From the NCBI RefSeq assembly GCF_024298765.1, contig NZ_CP101211.1: a stretch of DNA of 64,000 bases. One strand, written 5' to 3'. Of the stretch, positions 6,838 through 20,667 are shown one piece after another. Position 1 is the first letter of the stretch. The number at the start of each line of letters is the position of its first letter. Source of the stretch: Escherichia coli. GTDB taxonomy: Bacteria; Pseudomonadota; Gammaproteobacteria; Enterobacterales; Enterobacteriaceae. The translations under genes were made by a program, and so were the position numbers. The notes under the pieces are model-generated. The model saw only the letters and a list, made by a program, of their open reading frames with translations. It was not told the origin of the DNA and did not search any database.

Positions 6838-7231
6838 TTCGATATGGGCATTTACTTATGCTTAAAGCTATAGTATAAAAACAATGAGCTTAAATATCAG
6901 CTCCCAAATTTGAGTAACTTTGCTTAAAGTTACTTTCGCGTTAAGCGTTGATTTAGCCGTGAAAAGCGGCCAGCTTAAACAAGCTGTAAGACACCACCGG
7001 CAAAATGTCACCTTTGTCGCTGGTGCACTTCCCATGCCTGAAAAAGGCAATCTGAATTTACCAAACCGTAACTAATTTAGCTCCTCCTGGAGCTATTTTT
7101 GTTGCGTACTTCTAATGCCAGATAGTATAAATCAGGCGGTTCATAGCTTACGGGAGATGAATGACAGGCTTTGCCTTCGTGTTGAAACAAAAAATTGTTT
7201 CTTCCTTCTTACTATATATAGGTGACCCCAA

Positions 7232-8104
7232 ATGTCTAAAAATAAAGCTCGCAGTAAAGCCCTTCATCAAACCTTTAGTGAAATTATTCCAGAGATGGAT
7301 AAGGCGCTAAACAAACAGCTCTTAGAAGTTCTGATGAAATATACAGAACGTGATAATGAACTGATTGTTATTTTGAATGAGGACGGCCCAAATATCATTG
7401 AACTTAAGTCTCTTAAGCCTGTGTCTTTGTTGGCCGAAAAGCTTTCTGCTTATTCAAGCTATTATCATGTGGATGTTGTGGAGCTCGTGGTCAAGAAAAT
7501 TGATTTCGAAGGAGCTTATAAGCTTCTTAAAGCTTCCCCAGATGTACCACTTTTTAAAAGCTTAACTGAACTGGATAAATATCTTGTTGAGGAGTTTGAA
7601 AAATTCGGATTAAATTCATTTCTTGACGTGGATAATCTGGATTACTCACTTGAAAAAGCCAGTGAACTCAAAAATGAGCAGTTAATAAATTGGGTTTCGG
7701 ACATCATTTGCAAACGTGAAAAATTAACTTTACGTAAGCGTTTTGATGTCGCAGTAAAGGCCCACTACGAAAATGTAGAAAAAATGTATGATACCATTCG
7801 TCCGTTAATGAAAAAACTGGGTTTCCCAGAAGATCTCATGACGCACACCTTTAGTGAGTTAAGCGTTTTTGAAACTAAAGGATGGGACCATGCAATAAAA
7901 TCGAAAATTGAGACTCTCGCTAAGCGTGAAACTCAATATTTAGATGATGCGGCTAAAGCAGAGAATCGACGTCTTGTAACAGAGAAGTTGGAGAACTCTT
8001 TAGCGATTGCACCAACTAAACCAACAAGAAATTGGTTACATATTGCCGGAATTGCCTGTTTGGTAGTCTGCACGTTCATGTATGTAACTAATAAATTTAT
8101 TTAA
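7232..8104 (+). CDS. Hypothetical protein with C-terminal transmembrane anchor
   Basis: 290-aa ORF, charged helical body, hydrophobic C-terminus (WLHIAGIACLVVCTFMYV). Confidence 0.4.
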   Translation: MSKNKARSKALHQTFSEIIPEMDKALNKQLLEVLMKYTERDNELIVILNEDGPNIIELKSLKPVSLLAEKLSAYSSYYHVDVVELVVKKIDFEGAYKLLKASPDVPLFKSLTELDKYLVEEFEKFGLNSFLDVDNLDYSLEKASELKNEQLINWVSDIICKREKLTLRKRFDVAVKAHYENVEKMYDTIRPLMKKLGFPEDLMTHTFSELSVFETKGWDHAIKSKIETLAKRETQYLDDAAKAENRRLVTEKLENSLAIAPTKPTRNWLHIAGIACLVVCTFMYVTNKFI

Positions 8105-8161
8105 TCCTGTTAAGGGGGAACCCTAACGGGGCTTCTCTTTGAACAAATCGAGGAGCGGAAA

Positions 8162-8539
8162 ATGTCATATCTTGAATATATCAATGAAGTAAAAGTGTCC
8201 GGGATAGTTATCAGTGCTGTGGAGAAAAAAATGACTGACCAGAGTATAGGTTTGTTAATAAAGCTCAAAAATAGGATGAAGACAGAAGTTGATGGTGAAA
8301 TCACTGAGAGAGAATTTTCAGTTCAAATCAAGGTGTCGCCTGAAATGTATTCAACCTGTTTCACTGGTATAAATCAGGGTGATGAGTTGATGGTCTCCGG
8401 TTATATTGTTGTCGATACTATTATGATTGAAGGGAGAGAACATCCTCTTGACTACATGAGAGTGGTAGCAACAAGTAAGTTGGCTCACATACCTAAACCT
8501 CTAAAAGGTTTTGGACAAAGTAGCTTTAATCAGATCTGA
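8162..8539 (+). CDS. Hypothetical small protein, possibly OB-fold (SSB/PriB-like pattern)
   Basis: 125-aa ORF with RBS gaggag; alternating beta-like segments (VKVSGIV, FSVQIKV, MVSGYIVV); perfect hairpin terminator immediately downstream. Confidence 0.35.
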   Translation: MSYLEYINEVKVSGIVISAVEKKMTDQSIGLLIKLKNRMKTEVDGEITEREFSVQIKVSPEMYSTCFTGINQGDELMVSGYIVVDTIMIEGREHPLDYMRVVATSKLAHIPKPLKGFGQSSFNQI

Positions 8540-8599
8540 CATTAAACCCACCCTAAAGGGGAGAAATCCCTTCATGGGATTTCTCCTTTTGGAGTCCCC

Positions 8600-9577
8600 A
8601 TGAAACAAAAATTTAGGGCTACTGCAATAAGTAGTAATCAACTTAGTTTTTTTTCTATACTCGATATAGATGAAGATGAAATAACGCAAATAGTTGATTC
8701 ACCCAAAGAGCATTTAAATGATGCTTACACGTCCGGATTAAACTTTAAATCAGAAGAAAGTAACATTTCTGAGATAAATTATGATTCTGAAAGGCGTGAA
8801 AATCACCTTTATGAAAAATCCAAATTACTTAAAAATCAGATTTTGCATACAATTAATTTTGCAACAGAAACAGATTATCTATATACGGTTGAAGAATATA
8901 ACCCAGATTTGGGTGGTCTGGTAATAGAATGGACCCCTGAGGATGTGTATGTTGTTTTTCTATCCGCTATGGAAGAGTCTTTGGAAATCATTAAAGAACT
9001 AGTGTTGAGGAGAAAGTTATTCTTCAAAGATGACAATGGTAATATCACAGTGAATCCACTTTTAGAAGCTGAAACACGGTGGTATATGTCAAAATCATTT
9101 GAATACACTTGTTTATCTCATGGACTTGATGCATGTGAATTTAGAGCGGAATTAAAATCATGGCTCTATTATCATTCGCATCGTTCGATTAGTGAAAACA
9201 CGAAATTAGCTGAATGCAGGAATGATGATGAAATCATTTTGCATGATTGCAATGACGATATGGGCTGGGACATCTTCTTTGATCAGGATTATTTAATGTC
9301 AGAAAAAAAACTGGCTGTTAAATGGACTGACAGGGAAATTATGGATGTTTACATAAAAGCTTTTAAATCCTCATTAGAGTTGTTTGACGAGCTTGTTTCA
9401 TGTGATCTGTTAACTAAACGAAACGCTTTTGGCAAGTTAGAAATCAATCCAATATTCGAAAATCATTTTGAATGGATCATGTCTGAAGCTTTTGAAATAG
9501 TGGGAAATCATCTTGGTTATAATGTGCCTCAAATCAGGAAACTGATGGCAACTATTTGCCAAATGAATCTCAAATAA
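8600..9577 (+). CDS. Hypothetical protein
   Basis: 325-aa ORF in the same-strand gene block; no recognisable motif. Confidence 0.35.
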   Translation: MKQKFRATAISSNQLSFFSILDIDEDEITQIVDSPKEHLNDAYTSGLNFKSEESNISEINYDSERRENHLYEKSKLLKNQILHTINFATETDYLYTVEEYNPDLGGLVIEWTPEDVYVVFLSAMEESLEIIKELVLRRKLFFKDDNGNITVNPLLEAETRWYMSKSFEYTCLSHGLDACEFRAELKSWLYYHSHRSISENTKLAECRNDDEIILHDCNDDMGWDIFFDQDYLMSEKKLAVKWTDREIMDVYIKAFKSSLELFDELVSCDLLTKRNAFGKLEINPIFENHFEWIMSEAFEIVGNHLGYNVPQIRKLMATICQMNLK

Positions 9578-9634
9578 AATGCCACTGGCAAACATCTGCC
9601 AGAGGGCGGTGTTTGCATTTTACCGGAGTTAAAA

Positions 9635-10693
9635 ATGTCTAATGCCGCTATGAAGTTAAATGAAACATCTTCTGATGCTTATGAAAAATTAGAAGCTCTT
9701 CTTTCCCCGGATGTTATAAAGTTAAAACATTATGTGGATAAAGGTGAGTATCTTTTAGTTCTAGCAAAGGACCTTTTTGGTATTCCAGAAATGGATCCAA
9801 AGATGGCTGTGCCTGTTTTCAAAACTAAAACCTCGTATCGAGCTCCGCTGAACAAAGACTACATACCAAATCCCCGAATACTTGAACAAGTGGTTAAACT
9901 GCTTATCAGTCCGGATATAGATTTAAGTGTGTGTCTTAAAGGTGAGTCCGGTTCTGGCAAGACTGAAATGGTAATGTACATTAGCCACATGATGAATTGG
10001 CCGCTGACAATTAAGCAGATCAACAGCAATATTCGAGTTGATGAGCTTGAAGGTGAGCGCAGTCTTAATGGTGGTAATACAGGTTTTGTACACAGCGATT
10101 TGGTAACGGGATTTCGTAATGGTCACCTCATTCTTCTGGATGAAGTGGACAAAATCGATCCTGATACGGCAGCAAAACTTCACATGCCCATTGAACGTAA
10201 GCCCTGGTCACTCAGTGCTAATGGTGGTGAGGTTATAACTGCTAATGGCTACACGCGATTTATTGGTACTGCAAACACAAACATGAGTGGAGGCGCTCGC
10301 CGGTTCGTTTCTTCTCAACGTCAAGATGCAGCTTTTATAAAGCGGTTCTTGATAGTTGAAATGGAGAAGCCCGACAAAGTTGCTTTAACCAATGTGCTTA
10401 CTAAACGATATAGCTCTTTGCCTTTTCAGGTCATTGAGAAGTTCGTAAGAGTAGCGATTGCAGTAAATGACTCTGGTACAGAAGACAGTGTGATGGATAT
10501 TCGTCAATTAGTAGCTTGGGTTGGCACGTCGATGACGTTAAAAACCTTTAGTCTTCTTGACACTTTCAAAATAGCTTTTGCTTCTGCTTTACCTTTACAT
10601 GTGGTCGATCTTGTTCTTCAAGCTATAGATCTTTCTCTTGGCGAAGACAAGGATAAATCGCTGGAGTATTTCACAGCAAAAAAGTCGAGTTAG
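9635..10693 (+). CDS. AAA+ ATPase, MoxR/CobS-like
   Basis: 352 aa; Walker A GESGSGKT, Walker B hhhhLLDEVD, size and layout of MoxR-class single-AAA proteins. Confidence 0.6.
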   Translation: MSNAAMKLNETSSDAYEKLEALLSPDVIKLKHYVDKGEYLLVLAKDLFGIPEMDPKMAVPVFKTKTSYRAPLNKDYIPNPRILEQVVKLLISPDIDLSVCLKGESGSGKTEMVMYISHMMNWPLTIKQINSNIRVDELEGERSLNGGNTGFVHSDLVTGFRNGHLILLDEVDKIDPDTAAKLHMPIERKPWSLSANGGEVITANGYTRFIGTANTNMSGGARRFVSSQRQDAAFIKRFLIVEMEKPDKVALTNVLTKRYSSLPFQVIEKFVRVAIAVNDSGTEDSVMDIRQLVAWVGTSMTLKTFSLLDTFKIAFASALPLHVVDLVLQAIDLSLGEDKDKSLEYFTAKKSS

Positions 10694-11049
10694 ATGGGAT
10701 TTGTTATGAAACCTCTGATATTTGTATCTCAGAGTTATCCCATCTTGAATTTAGTGCGTTTTTAAGTACGGATGGTGCTGCTACCATTGCTATAGCAAAA
10801 AACGGAACTAATTTTACTGGACTTATGCAACTGAATAACGACTATTCTTTATTGTTTTATCATGATGGTAAAATAAATATGGAAGGTCTGATTAAACAAA
10901 TGGAATTAAAAGGTTATATGTATCAGGGAGCAATGGGCAATGATGATGTTGTTGCTGAGTTTCCCGGTATTCTTTTAATTTCACCAGAGTAGCTTTAATA
11001 TCAACCCTATCGGGAAATCTTTCCCGTTGGGGAGGGTTTCCCCTTTTTT

Positions 11050-12189
11050 TTGGAGAAACCCATGACTTTAAATACTTCAATGCTTAACAAAGTATCTGCA
11101 AAACAAATCTCTGAGAATTTTGCAAAATCATATCCAGATTTACTGGAAGGTGCAGTTATAACAAAAATTGAAATAAGTGGCTGTCAAGGATCGCGTCGAA
11201 CCGATAAAATCGATTTGTCTTATGATGGAGATGATATTACGGATCAAAAAAGCGTATCTAAAAGCGAAGTACGCTGGATTGACATAAAAGCCCTTAGCTT
11301 CAAAAGTACGATTACCAGCAGAATATCAACTCTTTGCTCACGCTTGTGCATCCGCTATAGCAATATGTGGATTTTACCAGTATCCAGTATGGAAGAGTTT
11401 CTGGAAGGGGCCCAAGAGATTGAACGAGAGTTTCAGGCAGGTATTCAAAACGTTGTAGACAATTATGAGATGCATATTGAGGCTGAAAAAAATAGAAGCC
11501 CAAGAATGTCTTCTTTGATTGATCAGTTGAAATTAACTAAAGATGATTTCATAAAATCCTTTAGATTTAATATTGCTCACTTTATTCCTTTTACGCCTAT
11601 TAGCGTTGAAGGTGATGAAACCCAGGACTACTATCAGGAACAATTGATAACAGATCTGGCAGAAGAAGCAATGAAGGTTTATGAAAAAATTAGCAAAAAT
11701 AACAATTTGCGCTCAAGTACTATTGACCGACTGAAGCAAATGCAAAATAAGATCATTAGCTTCATGTTTATACATAAAGAGGCGGCAGTACTTGCAGAAG
11801 CTATAAAACACATAATGAATAATTTACCTAAAGGTGCCATTTCTGAACCTCGCGACGTTGCGGTGTTACAGCAGTGGTTTTATTTCATGAGTGATGCTTC
11901 AATGTTAAAGCGTATTATTTCAGGAGAGCAAAAGGTTACTGACTGGTTGGAATCTATTACCAGATCATTTAATCAAAGCTCACAAACAGAACCGAACGCG
12001 CTACAGAACACAGGTATTGAAGCTATTTTAGATTCAACAAATGTGTTCCAGGTTGAACCTGTCGTAGAGAACGATATAAATAACAGCACGTTTTCAAACA
12101 CTGATCCTGTAGCTGAACCTGAGAAATCAGTTTCGCAACAGGAAGACAATGTTGAAAATGGTTTTGATATCGAGCTCAAAGGCTGGTAA
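11050..12189 (+). CDS. Hypothetical protein
   Basis: 379-aa ORF between the AAA+ and vWA genes; hairpin/T-run upstream and downstream. Confidence 0.35.
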   Translation: MEKPMTLNTSMLNKVSAKQISENFAKSYPDLLEGAVITKIEISGCQGSRRTDKIDLSYDGDDITDQKSVSKSEVRWIDIKALSFKSTITSRISTLCSRLCIRYSNMWILPVSSMEEFLEGAQEIEREFQAGIQNVVDNYEMHIEAEKNRSPRMSSLIDQLKLTKDDFIKSFRFNIAHFIPFTPISVEGDETQDYYQEQLITDLAEEAMKVYEKISKNNNLRSSTIDRLKQMQNKIISFMFIHKEAAVLAEAIKHIMNNLPKGAISEPRDVAVLQQWFYFMSDASMLKRIISGEQKVTDWLESITRSFNQSSQTEPNALQNTGIEAILDSTNVFQVEPVVENDINNSTFSNTDPVAEPEKSVSQQEDNVENGFDIELKGW

Positions 12190-12266
12190 CTGTTTGCTTT
12201 ATTAAAAACCCCAGATGGGTACTTCACCATCTGGGTGAGTACCCCTTTTTTATAAAGAGGTATTCT

Positions 12267-14279
12267 ATGAAATTAGATCTTAAATCATCACCGCGCCATA
12301 TTAAGCGTTTACAGAATATAGCAAAAGTCATTAGCGGCTTAGGCGATGTAAGAGTTGTAATAGACGACAATACCAAAGGACCGTATTTTGATCCTGTAAA
12401 TAAAGTTTGTGTTTTACCAAACGGCGATTATAGCGATGATGACTTTGTCAGTCTGATTGAAGGTTTTACCTGTCATGAAGCTGGTCATGGTCGCTATACC
12501 GACAGCGAGGTTTACAGTGACGCCTTTAATAGTGTTCTCAAGTCATCTGAAGGGTTTACACGCTTCGATGACGGAATGAATGCAGAGTTTGAGAGCCTCG
12601 CTGAGAAACGTAAAGCTTATAGCAGGGCAAAACGTCTTACCGGGCTTATAAATCTGTTCGATGATGTACAGATGGAAGAGAAGGTTGGTAACGATTATCC
12701 GGATGCAAAGCGGCGGCTTGCAGCCACTTACGCACTGATGGTTAAAGCCGGAAGGATGACTCCTGATATATCTTCTCGTCCGGAAAATCCTGTCCTATTT
12801 ATTGAGTGGTATCTGCTTAACTCATTGCGAGTAAAAGTCCTTCAGCAGGCAGGTCACAAAGAAACACTCGATCCGTTTTTTGACTATGCCCAAAAGATAC
12901 TTTCTCCAGTAATTTCTGATGTTGAGGAAATTTTTCATGATGCTCTTGGTTGTGAAAATACTCAGGGCTGTGAATCCCTTGCTCGTAAGACCCTGGCTCT
13001 TTTAGAGAGACTGCGGGATGAGGCAAGGGAACAACAGCAGCAGACAGAGCAGGAGGAGCAGGAGGCATATGATGAATCCGAGACCGAGACCGAGACCGAT
13101 ACCGAATCAGAAGATAAATCGCTTGAGTCGACTGATAGTCGTGAGGATGATTCTGAGGACGATAGTGAAGGTCAGGCAGATACTTCCGATAACTCTGATC
13201 TTGCTCAAGAGGGATGTTCTGAGCCTTCAGAACTTGCTGAAGATAACGAGGGAAATAATGAACCCACCGGTGGCAATCCCACAGGTGATAACATTATTGA
13301 AGACGATACTGATGCGATTAACCCTTCCGAGAGTGAATCAGATGAAGCCAGTTCGACTAACGTTGAAGATGAAAGTAACTTTTCATCGGCTCAATGGGAG
13401 ATACTGGCAGATTTGTTGGATGCCTTTCTTGGCAGTGATGAGGATAGCGAAGATTATCACGATGCTTTGGCTAAAGAGATTGAAGGTATTGCATCAAAAG
13501 TATCCGATGACGTGAAAGCCGAATTCGGTGCTTCTGAATGGGATATCCCTGATCTCCTTATCGATTTGAATGTTTACAATGAGGCTTTGTCTCTGAGTCA
13601 TTCAATCGGTAGCGACTTGTCTGTTTTACAGCAGGTTAAAATGCGTGGCCGAAACAAAACTCATGAGCGTGGAATTACCTTCGATGGAAATCGATTAATT
13701 CTGTCACCAATGGGAGTTCGTGATGTCTTCAGAGCTCAAAGCGAATCTAAAAATAGAGGGCATGTTGGCCTCGTATTAGTTCGTGATATTTCAGCGTCAA
13801 TGGCTAATGATGAAAGATATATTCATGCCATTAAGTCAGATCTTGCTTTATCGATGGCCGCTGAAAGTTTGTCAAAAATGCATGTCTCCAATATAGTCTT
13901 TCCCTTCAAGGAAAGTGAATTTGAGATTATCAAAACGTTTGATCAAAGCGTTGAGGAATCTCTATCGAAATTCACTCTTGGATGTAAGGGTTATTATACC
14001 CCTACGGGATCGGCTTTAATGGCAGCTGTTGATCTGTTACTTGACAGCCAATTCGATAGGAAAATAATTTTTCTTATAACTGATGGTTATCCGAATAAAT
14101 CGGAATTTACTATCGGCGAAGTTATGGAAAAGGCTAAATGTAATGGAATAGAAATCGTTGGTGTTGGTATTAAGACTGATGAAATAATTGGTTTTGAAAC
14201 GGACACTTTCGTAACAGTTGATGATACTTCTTTATTGTCTATTGAAGTCAGTAAGCTAGTTCATCAAATACTTTCTTAA
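12267..14279 (+). CDS. vWA-domain protein with N-terminal HExxH motif and acidic linker (CobT-like architecture)
   Basis: 670 aa; HEAGH motif near residue 70, long D/E/S/T-rich low-complexity linker, C-terminal vWA with MIDAS-like DISAS and downstream TDG. Confidence 0.6.
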   Translation: MKLDLKSSPRHIKRLQNIAKVISGLGDVRVVIDDNTKGPYFDPVNKVCVLPNGDYSDDDFVSLIEGFTCHEAGHGRYTDSEVYSDAFNSVLKSSEGFTRFDDGMNAEFESLAEKRKAYSRAKRLTGLINLFDDVQMEEKVGNDYPDAKRRLAATYALMVKAGRMTPDISSRPENPVLFIEWYLLNSLRVKVLQQAGHKETLDPFFDYAQKILSPVISDVEEIFHDALGCENTQGCESLARKTLALLERLRDEAREQQQQTEQEEQEAYDESETETETDTESEDKSLESTDSREDDSEDDSEGQADTSDNSDLAQEGCSEPSELAEDNEGNNEPTGGNPTGDNIIEDDTDAINPSESESDEASSTNVEDESNFSSAQWEILADLLDAFLGSDEDSEDYHDALAKEIEGIASKVSDDVKAEFGASEWDIPDLLIDLNVYNEALSLSHSIGSDLSVLQQVKMRGRNKTHERGITFDGNRLILSPMGVRDVFRAQSESKNRGHVGLVLVRDISASMANDERYIHAIKSDLALSMAAESLSKMHVSNIVFPFKESEFEIIKTFDQSVEESLSKFTLGCKGYYTPTGSALMAAVDLLLDSQFDRKIIFLITDGYPNKSEFTIGEVMEKAKCNGIEIVGVGIKTDEIIGFETDTFVTVDDTSLLSIEVSKLVHQILS

Positions 14280-14350
14280 TAAACTCTACCCAATCGGGGC
14301 AAAAGGCCCCGGTGGGTCTTTTTGCTCCATGAAGGAATAAGGAGCAAAAT

Positions 14351-14572
14351 ATGACTCAGATAAAAACTTACCGTGTAGAACATGAAAAAGTCGGTGCGAT
14401 GCATAAAGTCCGTATTTTCGGACGTGTTGGTGAAGTTATAAGCAATGATAGCCCTCAGGAAAGAATCTTCCGCGAAGTCACTATAGCGGAGGGTAATAGC
14501 CAGCAGGCTGCGTTACTTGTAGATAACTACATACAGCGTCTTGAGAATAATGGCTTCACGACTGAAGCATAA
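14351..14572 (+). CDS. Small hypothetical protein
   Basis: 73-aa ORF with RBS aaggag upstream; palindrome terminator GAGGGCCCCCGGGCCCTC downstream. Confidence 0.3.
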   Translation: MTQIKTYRVEHEKVGAMHKVRIFGRVGEVISNDSPQERIFREVTIAEGNSQQAALLVDNYIQRLENNGFTTEA

Positions 14573-14613
14573 ATGTTGAGGGCCCCCGGGCCCTCTTTCT
14601 TAAATTCTGCGTT

Positions 14614-15918
14614 GTGGGTTTCTCCCTGTCTTCTGCACCGCAGAAGGCATTGAGAAACTCACAATGCCAGATAAGAGAGATCATCATGACTTATGCATCC
14701 CCGGCTCTTCGTCGTAATCCACAGGAAGTATCTGAACACTTTATTAAACTCGTTCATGCTCGAATTGCTGAAGTGTCTGGCTGGAAGTATATATTCGAAA
14801 GAATACCTGCTTTCAAAGACGCTTGTGCAAAAGCCCCGAGCCAGGTTCCTTGCCCGTTTACTGGCGCAGGGAAATCGAAGTTTCGTTTCCGACAAAAAGA
14901 CCTTTATACCGGATGTGCGATCCATAATGACTTTCCGGTAAATGAGTTTTGCGACGGAATTGATGTTCTGGCGAAATATTATGAATTAAGTAAAACGCAG
15001 ACTTGCAAAAAGATTCTCTCAGATTTTTTCGGGATGGATCTGCATGCTCCGTTAACTGACGCCGACATTGAAAATGAACGACGCTATAAATCAGCAGTTC
15101 GTGCCACAGAAACTCTTGACCGAGAGGAAGTGGCAAAGCGAATGCGAAAACTTGATGTGATGTATCACTATACCGGTGAAATCAAGCCTAATACTCCTGT
15201 TGCTTTGTACCTCCGTAATCGTGGGATCTCCCGCTTACTGAGTCACTTACCAAAGGATTTAGGCTTTAATAACCGGATCTACTATTGGGATAAAGATAAG
15301 CAGAAATCGATTATCTATCCGGGAATGATTGCGATCTATCGTGACACCCGAGGTCGGCCTCTGACTATTCATAGAACATACGTAGACAAAAATGGTGATA
15401 AGGCACCTGTAGAAAATCCAAAGCTGATGATGAAGCCTCCTGCCGATATGACAGGTGGCTCAATTCAGTTGTTTGACCCTCACTATGATTCAGGTAGTTC
15501 GACCTGGACACTGGGAGTGGCTGAAGGGATCGAGAACGCGCTTTCTGTTGTAGAAGCGACTTCAACACCATGCTGGGCAGCCAGCTCCGCATGGTGCCTT
15601 GAAAACGTTACTGTTCCTGATTTTTTACTGCCTCCGCCGGATGTAAAATCTATAAACTTTTATATCTGGGCGGATAAGGATATTGCTAACTCACAAGGCA
15701 CTCGTGCCGGTATTGAAGCTGCTCAGCGACTTCAAAGCCGCATGGTTGAGTTTTTGGCTAAACGATATCCCGCATCAAAGCTGACAATTGAAGTCTTCGA
15801 ACCAGCACAAGATATTCCTGATGGGAAAAAGGGTATCGACTGGAACGATGTTCTCCAGTTAACAGGGCAGGATGGATTCCCGATTCACTGGGCTCCTGAA
15901 TGTCTTAATCAGCTGTAA
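14614..15918 (+). CDS. Primase-like protein (P4-type primase zinc-binding motif plus Toprim-like segment)
   Basis: CPFTGAGKSKFRF resembles the CPxCGGxDRFRF Zn-binding motif of primase-helicases; later GVAEGIENALS resembles a Toprim acidic motif; true start may be internal ATG at 14686. Confidence 0.45.
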   Translation: MGFSLSSAPQKALRNSQCQIREIIMTYASPALRRNPQEVSEHFIKLVHARIAEVSGWKYIFERIPAFKDACAKAPSQVPCPFTGAGKSKFRFRQKDLYTGCAIHNDFPVNEFCDGIDVLAKYYELSKTQTCKKILSDFFGMDLHAPLTDADIENERRYKSAVRATETLDREEVAKRMRKLDVMYHYTGEIKPNTPVALYLRNRGISRLLSHLPKDLGFNNRIYYWDKDKQKSIIYPGMIAIYRDTRGRPLTIHRTYVDKNGDKAPVENPKLMMKPPADMTGGSIQLFDPHYDSGSSTWTLGVAEGIENALSVVEATSTPCWAASSAWCLENVTVPDFLLPPPDVKSINFYIWADKDIANSQGTRAGIEAAQRLQSRMVEFLAKRYPASKLTIEVFEPAQDIPDGKKGIDWNDVLQLTGQDGFPIHWAPECLNQL

Positions 15919-15950
15919 CAACGATAACTCCCCCGCTTTTTGCGGGGGGG

Positions 15951-15996
15951 GTTATCTTATCAATATTATATTTTAAAATTGTATTGATAAGATAAC
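15951..15996. promoter_or_regulatory. 46-bp perfect palindrome (15-bp arms GTTATCTTATCAATA / TATTGATAAGATAAC, 16-bp AT spacer)
   Basis: Read directly; lies in a 270-bp intergenic region after a GC hairpin terminator (CCCCCGC-ttttt-GCGGGGG). Confidence 0.4.
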
Positions 15997-16188
15997 CGCT
16001 TTCCTTCGTGATAATTACCTGCCTTTAAGGTCTTTTCACGGCTGAGATGCTTGCTCAGTTAAATAAATGTGCGGTACTACTGGCTATGGTCGGTTGTATG
16101 ACATGGTTATTCCATAAACTATTAAAACCCATAACGGGAGTATTACCGTTATGGTGATGCTCGTCGTTTTACATCGGAGAGCATTTTA

Positions 16189-16788: not shown

Positions 16789-17667
16789 ATGAAGTTAGCT
16801 ACGGACCTGGTAAAAGCTATTTTGATTAGAAATGGCGTTGAACCAGTAAATATAAGCGAATCATCTAAGTTATCTTTGAAACAACCACTGACAGAACTTA
16901 AATTCAGTTTATATTTGCGAACTGAGCATTTATCTCACTTCCTACCCGGTTATGTTTATTCTATAAAAGAATGTCCACTGTCATATGACATCGGGATCGA
17001 AATTCAGAAAATCTTCGAAAGTTTACATTTGTTAAACGAAGAATTTGAATCCCTCGGTTTTGTTTCTGTATGGATAGAAATGCATCAAAGCATTTTTGAA
17101 CAAAGTCGGTTTAAGAAAAGTAACTTTACTTTTCGGGAGGAAGAGGTCGAGCTTGCTAAAGGGCTTGTTTGTTCTCACAATTCACAAATAAGTAATGCGG
17201 CTTATTTCTGGCTTCAGCACTTTGAGGAGTTTATGATTTATGTTCGTAATAAGCTTATCGACCTCTTTCGAGAGGCCTATGACCTGATCCTTGGAATGCA
17301 GCAAGTATTTTTCATTCGGGAAAAGGAAGAGCTGTTGAAAACTATAAGTTATGGCGATGAGCTGTATGAGGTGAAATTCATGGCGGCTGAGCTTTACTCT
17401 ATCGAACAGAACTTAAAGTGTTCTGAATCGATAAGTACAAAATCTCAAGCTTCGGCATATATTAACCGCATCCGTGAGTTTGTGCGTTCGGGGTGGAGGC
17501 AGGGCTATATAGTCTGCCATCATAAGCGAAGTAATCAAATTTCATCATTGTCATTACCGATGTACTTGAAAGATACGTCAGGCCGAAGTGCTCGAAAGCG
17601 AGTAAAACGTCTTATATCTTCTACAGTTTGTGGTAGAAATAAAGATTTAGGTCTTACAGATTTTTAA
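16789..17667 (+). CDS. Hypothetical protein, member of tandem paralog array
   Basis: 292-aa ORF; shared N-terminal pattern (h-x-x-h-L-x-x-x-G) with neighbours; hairpin CCCTGATG..CATCAGGG upstream. Confidence 0.35.
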   Translation: MKLATDLVKAILIRNGVEPVNISESSKLSLKQPLTELKFSLYLRTEHLSHFLPGYVYSIKECPLSYDIGIEIQKIFESLHLLNEEFESLGFVSVWIEMHQSIFEQSRFKKSNFTFREEEVELAKGLVCSHNSQISNAAYFWLQHFEEFMIYVRNKLIDLFREAYDLILGMQQVFFIREKEELLKTISYGDELYEVKFMAAELYSIEQNLKCSESISTKSQASAYINRIREFVRSGWRQGYIVCHHKRSNQISSLSLPMYLKDTSGRSARKRVKRLISSTVCGRNKDLGLTDF

Positions 17668-17737
17668 TTAAATTATACCCATGTGGGGATCACACCCCAT
17701 ATGGGAGTGATCCCTTTTTTTATTGAGAGAGGATCAC

Positions 17738-18493
17738 ATGAAAATTATCGAAAAAATCATTAATGCCTTTTTGGTTGTTCAACATAAAAAAATACAGGTT
17801 AAAAACATTACATTTTTAGACAATGGGCAGGGCATGTTCTCTGGTATGTCTTTTGATGCTGATGTTTCACTGGAGTTTATGTATGAATCAGCAAAAGCAT
17901 ATAGTTCTTGTTTCTGTGATATTCCCTTTCCAGGTTTTGAAGATGCAAATCTGGAGGAAATTACGAAATTTCAATTAGATGCTCTGAAGCAAAGAAAGAA
18001 TCATTCTTTCTTTGTTAACCATTTGAGGTTTCCTATAGTTTTAAGGGAAGGGTGCAAAATCGAAAGAGGAGAAGTCTATTCAATTTCGAATTGCACTTAT
18101 AATAAAGAAAGATTGCAGTATCTTTTTTCTCAGGATATTTACGGTAAGTTGTATAATTCCTTAGAGAAAGAATTAAGCTCGTTTTTCTCATTTATCAATG
18201 TTGAGGTGCACGAGTTGTTAAAAGATGCTGTATGCTTTGCATTAAAAATCCTGAATAAGATATCTTTGGATACACCTGAAAGACTTATTAAAGCTTTTAA
18301 TTATCGTGACTGGTATTGTAGTTACGATGTTGAGCTTTTTAGGAAAGGCTTACCTGGTCATATTCTGGAAGAGCTCATTGCTCCAGATATCTTACTTTCA
18401 GACCTTAACGGTTGTAGAAAAATACTTAGAAATGCAAAACGATTTCTAAATGGACATACACAAACCAATTGTGTTTATATTAAATATGAATGA
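17738..18493 (+). CDS. Hypothetical protein, possible paralog-array member
   Basis: ATG preceded by RBS gagagagga (track gives TTG start at 17723); hairpin plus T-run immediately upstream. Confidence 0.35.
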   Translation: MKIIEKIINAFLVVQHKKIQVKNITFLDNGQGMFSGMSFDADVSLEFMYESAKAYSSCFCDIPFPGFEDANLEEITKFQLDALKQRKNHSFFVNHLRFPIVLREGCKIERGEVYSISNCTYNKERLQYLFSQDIYGKLYNSLEKELSSFFSFINVEVHELLKDAVCFALKILNKISLDTPERLIKAFNYRDWYCSYDVELFRKGLPGHILEELIAPDILLSDLNGCRKILRNAKRFLNGHTQTNCVYIKYE

Positions 18494-18741
18494 TGGTTGG
18501 GGCCTGTTGATACCTCACACTCAGCTAAGTTGATGTCTGACAAAGAAATTAATAACCGAAGTGACTTGAAGAATTTTTCAAAGGTCTTTTTCAAAGAGTG
18601 TTTAAGTTCTGGTAAGTCGGAATATGAAAACCATCTTAGTGAAAAAGAACATGCGCTTCGCTATAATTATTAATTAAAATTATTTTCTCCCATAGGGATT
18701 TCTCCCTATGGGAGAAATCCCTCTATTAAGAGGGTATTGAA

Positions 18742-19662
18742 ATGAATGCTATACAAAAGTTAGTTGAATCTATTCTTGTTAAAATGGGTTTTGTTGGCGC
18801 TGTAGTGGAAAATATATATTTGGATTCAAAACCATTTCGGCATATTCGATTTGTGGCTGATATTCCAGTAATATCTTTTCTACCTCATTTGGTGAAATAT
18901 CTTAAGGGTGCAGACCATCTTTACAGTGGTAACGATGATTTGCATCCTCTTTTCATTTATTTTTCCGAAGCGGCTACATTAAAAGCAGGTCCTGTAAATC
19001 TCGCGAACTTTCGTTTTGAAGTTTCTATAGCTTCAACTCATTTACGACTGGTCTCAGAGCAGCCTGATTTGCTTTTCAAAGGATTTAACCGGGATAATCT
19101 AGAATACGTTTATTACCGCTCAGATTTGGCCTCTAAGGATCTTATACTAGGCCTTGTTGAACACGGTTCTCCTTTCATAAAACATCTACATGGACTTATA
19201 CAAAAGCGAATTTTAAACGAGTTCTCTCTGATTTTTTCTGTTCTTGAAAAGATTTTAGAAAGCGCGAAGCCACAAATTCTTGCTTGCTTCCATAGTGTTG
19301 ATTATGAAATGAACGTAAAAATAATAGCCGAAGCTATACCTGAAACTGTATCTAATCAGATAGTCACATCTGATTATATAGTTAATTCTATATCAGATGC
19401 GGACAAGTTTATAAATCATGTTCGTCGCTATTTAGCAGGCAGGGTAATGAAGAGGCGGATATACGCTGAATTAGATGTTTGTGAAGAAACATCAAGTATT
19501 TCACTAGTGAACTTAGGATGCTTTACGTCTCCTCTGCTCGTTACGGAATATCAAATGTTTAAGCCACACTCTTCAGGGTTATATCGAAAAGCTATAAACA
19601 ACTCCTTAAAACAGTTCAAACCAGAAATGCATGTACCTTCTGAAGAACTCTTTTATAATTAA
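18742..19662 (+). CDS. Hypothetical protein, paralog-array member
   Basis: 306-aa ORF; nested perfect palindromes directly upstream. Confidence 0.35.
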   Translation: MNAIQKLVESILVKMGFVGAVVENIYLDSKPFRHIRFVADIPVISFLPHLVKYLKGADHLYSGNDDLHPLFIYFSEAATLKAGPVNLANFRFEVSIASTHLRLVSEQPDLLFKGFNRDNLEYVYYRSDLASKDLILGLVEHGSPFIKHLHGLIQKRILNEFSLIFSVLEKILESAKPQILACFHSVDYEMNVKIIAEAIPETVSNQIVTSDYIVNSISDADKFINHVRRYLAGRVMKRRIYAELDVCEETSSISLVNLGCFTSPLLVTEYQMFKPHSSGLYRKAINNSLKQFKPEMHVPSEELFYN

Positions 19663-19728
19663 TCTAACCCATCCGGGAACCTGCTTCCCGGTGGGAAGCA
19701 CTTCCTTTTTAGTCATGAGGTAGTGTAA

Positions 19729-20667
19729 ATGTTTAAAGAATCTGACCACGTGGAATTTGTTAGTGCCTTTCTTTATCAAAATTTAGGCCTTAATGTTTCC
19801 GCTGACGATATAACCGTTCAATTATCTGATACTTCGTTCGACAAAGTAACCTTTGATTACGATGTAGATATCGATAATTTAAATTGTATGTTGGATCTCT
19901 ACATATCTGAGCTAATAAAGCACAACGCATCTTACTCCGATTCTATTCTTTTGAAACAAAAAATAATTTATTTTCTTGGAGTATTTAAGAATTTCGGATT
20001 TTTTACGTTTGATATTCGCGGATATAGTAATACTTTAAGCCCAGTTAAAGTTATTGATATTGTTTCAATGATTATTAATGACTGTGAAGAGTTATCTAAA
20101 GCTAATTCTTCTACTGATGCTATAAGAAATCTTTATCTCGATAAAATGAAGGTGGATGGGAAAGTGTTAGTTGCGAAATTTGCACTTAAACAGTTTTTTC
20201 ATTCCGACTTTGGTGACTTTATCTCATTTGTCGAGAAAAGAATTACAGATTGTCTTAATGAAACTTTAAGGATTATCAAAGCTGTTGAACATGGCTTTGT
20301 ACGTGTAGGGCAGCATAAGATTAATCGCCGTATTAATGATGACTTAAAGTTATGCATTGATTTCAATACTGATGATTATCCGGCAAATATGCCAGATATA
20401 TATATTAAGTTTAACGATACATTTGATGGGAACGGGGCGTTATATTGTGACAATGATGCCCTCATATCCCTCTATACCGATGTTGCTTCAATTATCAATG
20501 TGCCGGTGATGATGGAAGTAAGATTGATCAATAAAAGAGGGCGTGTTGTCTGTGATTCTTCGCATTCAACTTACGTATCTCTCGAAAGTAATGACCGATA
20601 CAGAGTAACTGATCGCACATTACTAATAACTGAAGCTTTTGACGATTTTCGTAACGCGTCTCAATGA
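19729..20667 (+). CDS. Hypothetical protein, paralog-array member (intact sister of the IS1-split gene)
   Basis: 312 aa; N- and C-terminal blocks align with the 20833 gene (VLVAKFALKQFFHSDF vs VMIARFALQQFWDTHF); near-identical RBS gaggtagtgtaaatg. Confidence 0.4.
   Translation: MFKESDHVEFVSAFLYQNLGLNVSADDITVQLSDTSFDKVTFDYDVDIDNLNCMLDLYISELIKHNASYSDSILLKQKIIYFLGVFKNFGFFTFDIRGYSNTLSPVKVIDIVSMIINDCEELSKANSSTDAIRNLYLDKMKVDGKVLVAKFALKQFFHSDFGDFISFVEKRITDCLNETLRIIKAVEHGFVRVGQHKINRRINDDLKLCIDFNTDDYPANMPDIYIKFNDTFDGNGALYCDNDALISLYTDVASIINVPVMMEVRLINKRGRVVCDSSHSTYVSLESNDRYRVTDRTLLITEAFDDFRNASQ

Follow-up and report, generated by a model that had tools for sequence, protein, structure and literature searches.

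A conserved AAA+ ATPase, DUF3150 and CobT-like protein triad in the backbone of IncHI2 and other MOBH-type plasmids: a candidate remodelling machine of conjugative elements

Introduction

What does the block of same-strand genes at positions 7232-16188 of the Escherichia coli plasmid DNA analysed here (the window, a stretch of 64,000 nucleotides from contig NZ_CP101211.1) contribute to the element that carries it? The window is the backbone of an IncHI2 (R478-type) plasmid, and three genes of the block, together called the triad below, encode a MoxR/CobS-class AAA+ ATPase, a DUF3150 protein and a 670-residue CobT-like adaptor with a von Willebrand factor A (vWA) domain. The triad is located in the conserved backbone of IncHI2, IncC and SXT/R391-type elements, which rank among the chief carriers of multidrug resistance (mcr, NDM, extended-spectrum beta-lactamases), and for more than 15 years it has gone without an assigned function. 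An earlier, sequence-only reading of the window did not recognise the gene combination as a described system; this has to be corrected, as the conservation of the MoxR-like ATPase and vWA genes of pCAR1 in R478 (IncHI2), Rts1, SXT and R391 was noted in 2009 (Miyakoshi et al. 2009, PMC2642839). In the literature searched, no paper assigns a function to the triad, and the term 'DUF3150' occurs in one unrelated preprint only.

Our results suggest, with a probability of roughly one half, that the block is a conserved accessory backbone operon of MOBH/MPF_F elements and that it encodes a machine built in the style of the cobaltochelatase CobSTN, which likely acts on DNA-protein complexes in conjugative DNA processing.

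A CobS-like ATPase and a CobT-type adaptor

The ATPase has its Walker A motif, GESGSGKT, in positions 103-110 and its Walker B motif, LLDEVD, in positions 167-172, and it belongs to Pfam AAA_5 (PF07728), which confirms the AAA+ assignment that the sequence-only reading had based on the same two motifs. Among proteins of known structure in the PDB its sequence matches Midasin (E 7e-21, in the AAA core only), NorQ (E 2e-9), CobS (E 2e-8, over residues 43-300) and CbbQ, and its top match in PHROGs is family 249, the phage CobS family (E 2.5e-30). The score against the CobS equivalog model TIGR01650 is 34.4 bits (E 1.3e-8), whereas the curated cutoff of that model is 558.55 bits. Judged by its sequence, the protein is therefore CobS-like, yet not CobS. 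A vWA gene with a complete MIDAS (metal-ion-dependent adhesion site) lies about 1.6 kb downstream, which places the ATPase among the MoxR-class ATPases that are accompanied by a vWA partner.

This partner is the 670-residue adaptor, in which the HEAGH motif, the extreme acidic linker and the C-terminal vWA/MIDAS domain described earlier were all located. HEAGH occupies positions 70-74. The linker (positions 256-400) consists of Asp and Glu to 36.6% and of Lys and Arg to 1.4%. The MIDAS is complete, comprising D507-x-S-x-S (DISAS, positions 507-511), T578 and D606, and is invariant in eight relatives with 18-34% identity. In the N-terminal 259 residues, His70-Glu71-x-x-His74 and Asn129, Asp133 and Glu137 (the 'N..ED.R.E' motif) are invariant in 25 relatives. 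Overall, the motifs of the adaptor are invariant or nearly so across 8-25 relatives with 15-64% identity; the homologue searches with the vWA alignment, the N-domain alignment and DUF3150 returned mostly near-identical or fragmentary sequences.

The AlphaFold2 model of the N-domain, with a confidence (pLDDT) of 95.6, consists of a helix, a three-stranded sheet and further helices. The HExxH motif is located on the active-site helix, a putative Glu ligand is provided by a later helix, and a mixed sheet lies upstream, as is characteristic of gluzincins. The same topology has been described, under the term M48C-like, for the N-terminal domain of CobT (CobT_N) in a cryo-EM preprint on CobSTN of July 2026 (10.64898/2026.07.21.739949). 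In that structure CobT_N docks on the small subdomain of CobS and the vWA domain on the CobS ring, while CobN is held between the two CobT domains, beside the MIDAS site (10.64898/2026.07.21.739949). All parts of a CobT-type adaptor are thus present in the plasmid protein, from the M48C-like N-domain through the acidic, disordered linker to the MIDAS vWA domain at the C-terminus. The genuine CobT of Albidovulum aligns with the N-domain profile of the adaptor (E 5e-7); it has DGLAL in the position of HExxH and keeps the helix with the 'LE.AR.E' motif. Based on this alignment, the plasmid protein represents a CobT-type adaptor with a retained, complete predicted zincin metal site, which is absent from the chelatase subunit. 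The observation that is new here is that HExxH is missing in genuine cobaltochelatase CobT and is kept in the plasmid proteins and in the one phage protein that was examined. It is speculative, but the adaptor may, by means of the retained HExxH, also cleave a protein.

The DUF3150 protein

Membership of the third protein of the triad in DUF3150 (PF11348) is supported by a Pfam hit, and a profile search with it extends to 1,548 clusters. In its predicted structure, a folded alpha/beta-plus-helical core of about residues 1-310 is followed by an acidic, disordered tail that ends in Trp; the Foldseek search with the protein matched other DUF3150 proteins only. The character of the tail is conserved. 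Of 146 diverse relatives, 96 end in Phe, 31 in Trp and 4 in Tyr, which gives an aromatic last residue in 131 (90%), and in 83 an aromatic residue stands in the penultimate position. The final 60 residues contain on average 22.5% Asp and Glu and 4% Lys and Arg. Typical ends are EDEDAFF, DDDCFF and ELDFGGW, and the protein of the window ends in FDIELKGW.

The single-stranded DNA-binding protein (SSB) of E. coli, which ends in DDDIPF, and gp2.5 and gp4 of phage T7 interact with their partners by means of a disordered, acidic tail whose C-terminal residue is aromatic. The presence of this SSB/gp2.5-like pattern at the C-terminus of DUF3150 proteins is the second observation made here for the first time. 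By analogy, it provides a lead: the tail could join SSB-type protein interactions, or it could present the MIDAS site or the motor with an acidic ligand.

A peculiarity of the SSB genes of IncC-type elements should be mentioned beside this. In two of them (locus L006, 11916-12446; locus L018, 5530-6069) the DDDIPF sequence is followed by nine more residues (MRLHxLxGG), and the canonical tip is therefore not C-terminal. The DUF3150 protein that the same operon encodes has an acidic run and a free FF at its C-terminus. DUF3150 may supply the free SSB-like tail in IncC-type operons, or this may be a coincidence.

Comparison with known systems

The closest known system is CobS-CobT-CobN. The two share a AAA_5 motor, whose similarity to CobS extends over nearly the full length, an adaptor composed of an N-domain, an acidic linker and a MIDAS vWA domain, and a third protein that is encoded alongside. 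They differ in that the plasmid block encodes DUF3150, unrelated to CobN, between the motor and the adaptor genes, that the HExxH of the plasmid adaptor is intact, that the scores stay below the cutoffs, and that the genes are found in the context of conjugation and DNA enzymes and not of cobalamin. The pairing of a AAA_5 ATPase with a MIDAS-bearing vWA partner is also common to NorQ-NorD, CbbQ-CbbO, RavA-ViaA and Midasin, in which, by the general logic of these systems, the vWA domain grips an acidic residue of the client and the ring remodels the client. The adaptors of these systems, in contrast, have no HExxH zincin N-domain, and they are not linked to DUF3150 or to DNA enzymes.

According to Kaur et al. 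(2020, PMC7159879), the vWA-MoxR-VMAP ternary conflict systems have the gene order VMAP-MoxR-vWA, a VMAP-C domain and vWA proteins with fused variable effector domains. Like the triad, they have a three-gene core of MoxR, vWA and a conserved third protein, for which a ternary complex has been proposed (PMC7159879). The triad is set apart from them by comparison with the published description and not with a VMAP-C profile: its order is MoxR-DUF3150-vWA, its vWA domain is C-terminal with no extra domain, and it is found on conjugative elements, with no association with multicellular bacteria. A known anti-phage defence system was considered too and rejected, as the hits in PADLOC-DB v2 were confined to weak, generic AAA matches (E no better than 2e-4), with none to the DUF3150 or the vWA protein.

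A similar pair of motor and adaptor is present in a T4-like phage. In this phage, Stenotrophomonas phage vB_SmaS-DLP_6 (DLP6; locus L032, 2709-5138), a gene for an 809-residue 'peptidase' adjoins a CobS-like gene, between UvsX/primase-helicase and ThyX and thus among genes of replication and recombination. With HEIGH...NVIEDARIE (N-domain E 6e-13), an acidic linker and DQSGS, this peptidase has the same architecture as the plasmid adaptor. Translated searches (tblastn) with the ATPase of the window gave matches in 57 phage records, and the cobS genes of cyanophages also match it. The phage pair differs from the plasmid module in that tblastn with the DUF3150 protein of the window found no match in phage records and in that the similarity is low (about 28% for the ATPase). 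It is usually assumed that phage CobS boosts cobalamin synthesis, although this is unproven (PMC8651126).

Distribution and gene neighbourhoods

The 8,957-bp stretch of the block recurs with 100% identity in over 1,100 plasmids, from Salmonella, Escherichia, Enterobacter and Klebsiella, which are typed as IncHI2/IncHI2A with a MOBH relaxase and mating-pair formation type MPF_F. More broadly, tblastn in PLSDB matched the IncHI2 DUF3150 protein in 1,980 plasmids and the IncC one in 1,107, about 3,000 of 72,556 plasmids, and approximately 89% of the DUF3150-positive plasmids are predicted to be conjugative. The same type of search with the DUF3150 protein of the window gave no match in 50,697 phage records.

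Gene neighbourhoods were compared in about 20 non-redundant loci of Gamma-, Beta- and Alphaproteobacteria, taken from PLSDB, metagenome contigs and GTDB genomes; the genome scan was run with the IncC-type DUF3150 subfamily and is biased towards it. In every locus with enough flanking sequence the DUF3150 gene lies 5' of the CobT-like vWA gene, usually directly, and in every such locus of the screen made with the module's own proteins as queries a AAA_5 gene lies upstream. Two layouts can be distinguished. In type A the order is TraN, Sfx (minus strand), AcaB (minus strand), AAA, a gene of about 200-300 codons, SSB (in some), RecT, YqaJ, DUF3150 and vWA, and its carriers are IncC plasmids, SXT-like islands, Vibrio, Shewanella, Halomonas, Alcanivorax, Marinomonas and a metagenome-assembled genome of Rhodospirillaceae. 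In type B the order is TraN, lipoprotein (minus strand), UvrD, SSB or the o2 gene of the window, an o3-family gene, AAA, a small gene (in some), DUF3150, vWA, a small gene and Toprim; this layout is carried by IncHI2, a Klebsiella IncHI-like plasmid, a Pseudoalteromonas plasmid and a metagenomic element. IncT Rts1 and E. coli pT159A have the order RecT, exonuclease, a further gene, MoxR, DUF3150 and vWA, and a MobH plasmid of Ralstonia has DUF3150, a vWA-like gene and a Zn-binding primase gene. As in IncHI2, the triad follows traN in IncC, IncT, SXT-like and marine MOBH elements. The gene arrangement is not due to chance, because the order is kept both in more than 1,100 identical plasmids and in diverged elements. 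The triad is a backbone signature of MOBH-type conjugative elements, and its constant companions are enzymes of single-stranded DNA (ssDNA) handling, recombination and priming: RecT, YqaJ and SSB between the AAA and DUF3150 genes in IncC-type elements, and UvrD, SSB and primase on either side of the triad in IncHI-type elements.

The SXT and IncC versions of the module belong to the SetCD/AcaCD-activated operon that includes bet and exo. This operon starts at the s089 and vcrx087 promoters, which carry the strongest SetCD and AcaCD ChIP-exo peaks (PMC4344509, PMC4542580); the bet/exo operon is therefore switched on together with the transfer genes.

Three unrelated elements have genes related to ribonucleotide reductase (RNR) in the vicinity of the module. 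In IncC (locus L006, 20777-20816) and in the Pseudoalteromonas plasmid (locus L007, 15748-15990) the gene is yfaE, which in the latter plasmid overlaps with the 3' end of the primase gene; in the Ralstonia plasmid (locus L031, 2803-5652) it encodes the RNR alpha subunit. Together with ThyX in phage DLP6, these genes could point to nucleotide supply or to the maintenance of a metal cofactor.

Proposed function

The homology of two of the three parts to CobSTN and the strict linkage of the third part, DUF3150, lead us to infer how the machine could be built; the domain identities, predicted folds, motif conservation and synteny behind this proposal were established in the analysis. The AAA_5 ATPase would be a hexameric motor in the position of CobS. 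The 670-residue protein would be the adaptor in the position of CobT, docking with its N-terminal M48-like domain on the small subdomain of the motor and with its vWA/MIDAS domain on the ring. DUF3150 would stand in for CobN, as the protein, be it client or effector, that the machine holds or remodels, and its acidic, aromatic-ended tail would be the probable handle that binds the MIDAS site, the motor or the host proteins that read SSB tails. As enzymes of ssDNA handling and recombination accompany the triad throughout, the most likely job of the machine would be the ATP-driven remodelling of protein-DNA complexes while the DNA of the element is processed, recombined or re-primed around conjugation; it is the gene neighbourhood that suggests this target. 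Proteolysis might be part of the job, because the complete zincin site (HExxH together with the Glu of a later helix) has been kept. The effect would be better establishment of the element and not a requirement for transfer itself.

Several points weigh against this proposal. The link to DNA comes from gene neighbourhood, and structure comparison with Foldseek revealed no recognisable DNA-binding fold in DUF3150. An intact HExxH is no proof of catalysis and could serve as a structural or metal-delivery site. The block lies outside the leading region, and its position does not imply action in the recipient. Deletions of bet, exo, s067, s068 and s070 in SXT cut transfer 10-fold or less (PMC2791158), a figure that stands for core genes of the operon region, in the wording of that paper, and not for identified triad genes. 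Rts1 conjugates despite a vWA gene split by IS2 (locus L029, 14030-17192), and the deletion of its ORFs 227-234 left 21% of the conjugation efficiency; because the vWA gene of Rts1 is already split, these deletion data are uninformative on the function of the triad. The view of the sequence-only reading, that the block is a DNA-processing or establishment system, thus holds insofar as it agrees with the conserved presence of genes for helicase, SSB, RecT, YqaJ and primase beside the triad, and is tempered by its dependence on that neighbourhood and by the small effect of deletions in relatives.

If a CobSTN-like machine does act on DNA-protein complexes, it would be a new activity of MoxR/vWA pairs, beyond metal insertion and enzyme reactivation, which could account for the 'CobS/CobT' genes of phages and provide a new target against plasmid establishment. 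Two characteristics are open to point mutation, namely the HExxH that is kept only in the adaptors of mobile elements and the aromatic C-terminus of DUF3150. A bolder form of the proposal, which we hold to be possible but doubtful, is that conjugative elements and a T4-like phage have repurposed the motor and its vWA adaptor so that an active zincin strips or cleaves bound or covalently attached proteins (for example SSB, relaxase or host factors) on DNA that is being transferred or recombined, with DUF3150 as a novel type of nucleoprotein adaptor, the SSB-like acidic and aromatic tail of which ties the machine into the SSB network.

Alternative explanations

The presence of a metalloprotease domain in the adaptor also raises the question of anti-defence or host takeover, in which the motor and adaptor would capture a defence or stress protein of the recipient or the donor and inactivate or degrade it, DUF3150 being a decoy or a targeting subunit. 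ArdC of R388, an ssDNA-binding antirestriction protein with a metalloprotease domain, offers a precedent; in contrast to the adaptor it has no vWA domain, AAA partner or acidic linker, and no sequence similarity between the two was detected. Known plasmid anti-defence genes concentrate in the leading region, and the block is not located there. Moreover, the block of the relatives is co-transcribed with recombination genes, variable effector domains are absent, and PADLOC gives only the weak generic AAA hits, although its library covers defence systems and not anti-defence genes. This explanation is in our opinion unlikely. The insertion of a metal cofactor, the classical task of MoxR/vWA pairs such as CobST, NorQD and CoxDE, into a metalloenzyme of the element (for example the primase, the exonuclease YqaJ or a ribonucleotide reductase) is suggested by the closest characterised relatives, which are metal-insertion machines, by yfaE or RNR genes near the module in the IncC, Pseudoalteromonas and Ralstonia plasmids, and by ThyX next to the phage pair. 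However, no candidate client is common to all loci: IncHI2 has no RecT, YqaJ or RNR gene nearby, and IncC has no adjacent primase gene. The sole partner that is universally linked is DUF3150, which has no obvious metal site, and the true chelatase CobT has lost HExxH, not gained it. A metal-insertion chaperone is therefore improbable.

The position of the module between tra blocks (traN upstream, and traF, traH and traG downstream in IncC-like plasmids and pT159A), as well as its co-activation with tra genes in SXT and IncC, would be expected of a chaperone for the assembly or remodelling of the conjugative type IV secretion system or its pilus. Against this, deletions of core genes of the region reduce transfer at most 10-fold, while the loss of a true mating-pair formation gene abolishes it; the specifically linked genes encode DNA enzymes and not envelope proteins; the T4-like phage, which has no such secretion system, carries the same motor/adaptor pair; and inspection of the sequences revealed a signal peptide or membrane segment in none of the three triad proteins. 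We regard a role of this kind as very improbable. The simplest label, an ordinary cobaltochelatase CobS/CobT of cobalamin synthesis, would be in accordance with the weak best matches to CobS and cobaltochelatase-subunit models and with database entries that call some members of the family 'cobalamin biosynthesis protein', but it is refuted for practical purposes and was ruled out. The scores fall far short of the equivalog cutoffs (34 bits for CobS, with a cutoff of 558, and 33 bits with a cutoff of 779), the HExxH of the adaptor is absent from CobT, and the DUF3150 gene is intercalated between the two genes. Enterobacteria, the hosts of these plasmids, synthesise cobalamin by a CobN-independent anaerobic route. 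No CobN or cob gene is found among the 46 annotated features in 49 kb or among the genes listed for the other contexts inspected, the protein screen of the loci having used the module's own proteins as queries only and thus being no test for CobN. The earlier claim of a CobS/CobT-like pair outside cobalamin metabolism is thereby upheld.

Organisation of the block

The block begins just 3' of the end of the Tra2 block, in the order trhU, trhN, lipoprotein gene (minus strand), UvrD-like helicase gene and block. As stated in the sequence-only reading, it is AT-rich (GC content 39.8%; the window as a whole has 45.9% and its right half 50%) and contains eight large open reading frames (ORFs), all on the plus strand, to which RefSeq adds a ninth, small one (table 1). 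The spacers between the ORFs of the block measure 57-113 bp, with the exception of the 368 bp that separate the ATPase gene from the DUF3150 gene and contain the 55-codon RefSeq ORF. The precomputed Pfam hits are AAA_5, DUF3150, VWA (weak) and DUF7146 with Toprim_3, and four ORFs have no hit on record.

Table 1. Coordinates of the genes, motifs and terminal hairpin of the block and of the two genes preceding it, in positions of the window.
Feature	Position	Strand	Remarks
Lipoprotein, 290 aa	4001..4873	-	Lipobox LSGC; divergent from trhN
UvrD/Rep-type SF1 helicase, 594 aa	5053..6837	+	First of same-strand block; outside 7232-16188; Pfam UvrD-helicase, UvrD_C
o1, 290 aa	7232..8104	+	No recognisable family; C-terminal hydrophobic helix, residues 268-285
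o2, 125 aa, probable SSB-like OB-fold protein	8162..8539	+	Weak profile support
o3, 325 aa, two copies of a unit of ~80 residues	8600..9577	+	Directly 5' of ATPase gene
AAA_5 (MoxR/CobS-class) ATPase, 352 aa	9635..10693	+	Walker A 9941-9964; Walker B 10133-10150
Small ORF, 55 aa	10825..10992	+	RefSeq annotation; followed by T8-run hairpin 11012-11042
DUF3150 protein, 375 aa	11062..12189 (alternative start 11050)	+	Pfam DUF3150 (PF11348)
CobT-like adaptor, 670 aa	12267..14279	+	HEAGH 12474-12488; N129/D133/E137 12651-12680; DISAS 13785-13799
o7, 73 aa	14351..14572	+	Between vWA and primase genes; small gene in same slot in L005, L007 and L012
DUF7146+Toprim_3 primase-like protein, 410 aa (ATG 14686) or 434 aa (GTG 14614)	14686..15918	+	Pfam; PHROG 510
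Motifs of the Toprim protein	14851-14889; 15520-15546; 15667-15684		Zn-ribbon-like motif; catalytic Glu within second range; DxD within third range
GC-rich hairpin, 9 pairs	15928..15950	+	Ten bases past primase stop codon

Terminator-like GC-rich hairpins are present in nearly all spacers of the block (7078-7095, 11012-11042, 12210-12235, 14293-14313, 14578-14595 and 15928-15950), and 23 hairpins were counted in 13 kb, compared with 9.8±3.6 in shuffled sequences. The last of them is likely the end of the transcription unit. The hairpin with the T8 run is a strong one of 14 pairs that stops just 5' of the start of DUF3150. It could act as an attenuator and divide the operon, and it resembles the attenuator reported 5' of bet in SXT. 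Farther downstream, the ORFs of about 300 codons in 16789-20667 were considered as mutual paralogues, for which BLASTP gave no support.

Primase-like protein and smaller genes

In the Toprim protein, Glu280 and Asp330-Lys-Asp332 are invariant in five relatives, which supplies the catalytic Glu and DxD expected of a Toprim domain, and the protein matches PHROG 510, 'DNA primase', with E 1.7e-27; a search of PDB sequences gave no match. The P4-type primase Zn-binding motif of the sequence-only reading, CPFTGAGKSKFRF, corresponds to residues 56-68 and lies within the region that Pfam calls DUF7146. It is present and homologous to the Zn-ribbon region of primases, and the Toprim residues are intact, but the ribbon itself is degenerate: Cys56 alone is invariant among the five relatives. 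The protein of the window offers Cys56, Cys80, His83 and Cys95, one of the five relatives (L026) has a full ligand set (C-x2-H...C-x2-C), and the others carry other sets, so that Zn binding by this protein is uncertain. Plasmid proteins of comparable build are RP4 TraC and ColIb-P9 Sog, Toprim-type primases of the DnaG/P4-alpha kind. They share with the protein of the window a Toprim domain with catalytic Glu and DxD that is preceded by a Zn-ribbon-homologous region. The latter differs in that its Zn ligands are not conserved and that it has neither a helicase nor a C-terminal transport domain.

The small o2 protein, earlier listed as a possible oligonucleotide-binding (OB) fold protein, is probably a short SSB-like OB protein, as judged by profile comparison, although the matches are only suggestive. 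An alignment of profiles (hhalign) with plasmid SSBs gave a weak match, with 41% probability and E 2.8e-4, which places residues 5-87 in register on SSB residues 5-90. A profile of two o2 sequences matches the SSB that occupies the same slot in the syntenic locus L012 (E 7e-4) and, weakly, the SSB of the Pseudoalteromonas plasmid (0.056). On the other side, o2 has no Pfam hit, and it ends in GFGQSSFNQI, with neither the acidic tip nor the long Gly/Gln tail of SSB.

The o3 protein contains an internal tandem repeat, the two copies of which are 30% identical (BLASTP E 3e-12), and o3-family genes lie directly 5' of the AAA gene in the IncHI-type loci L005, L007 and, marginally, L012. No family was found for o1, o3 and o7 in NCBIfam, PHROGs, PADLOC and precomputed Pfam, apart from one marginal PHROG match of o1 (E 0.0019, over 48 residues). 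The only homologue found for o1 is in the Klebsiella IncHI-like plasmid.

Flanking genes

The UvrD-like helicase next to the block, which the sequence-only reading had pointed out, is confirmed by Pfam and NCBIfam. Its matches to the Rep, UvrD and PcrA models of NCBIfam range from E 1e-46 to 1e-53, all below the equivalog cutoffs, and its GajB-like hits in PADLOC reflect the UvrD fold. The same slot is occupied by a helicase gene in L005, L007 and L012. In the near-identical IncHI2 plasmid pR18.0877_278k the gene is broken into two ORFs (locus L001, 17822-19606) and missing from the gene table; the helicase is therefore dispensable for the persistence of the plasmid in at least some lineages.

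The lipoprotein gene upstream of the helicase sits where IncC plasmids have the gene for their surface-exclusion lipoprotein Sfx (PMC11493245). Direct comparison of Sfx with this lipoprotein by BLASTP was negative, and a jackhmmer chain that starts from IncC Sfx reaches it only through intermediates (E 0.0022); for its Klebsiella homologue the chain gives 1.6e-11. Based on position and this distant similarity, the lipoprotein may tentatively be regarded as the surface-exclusion factor of IncHI2, matched to TrhN.

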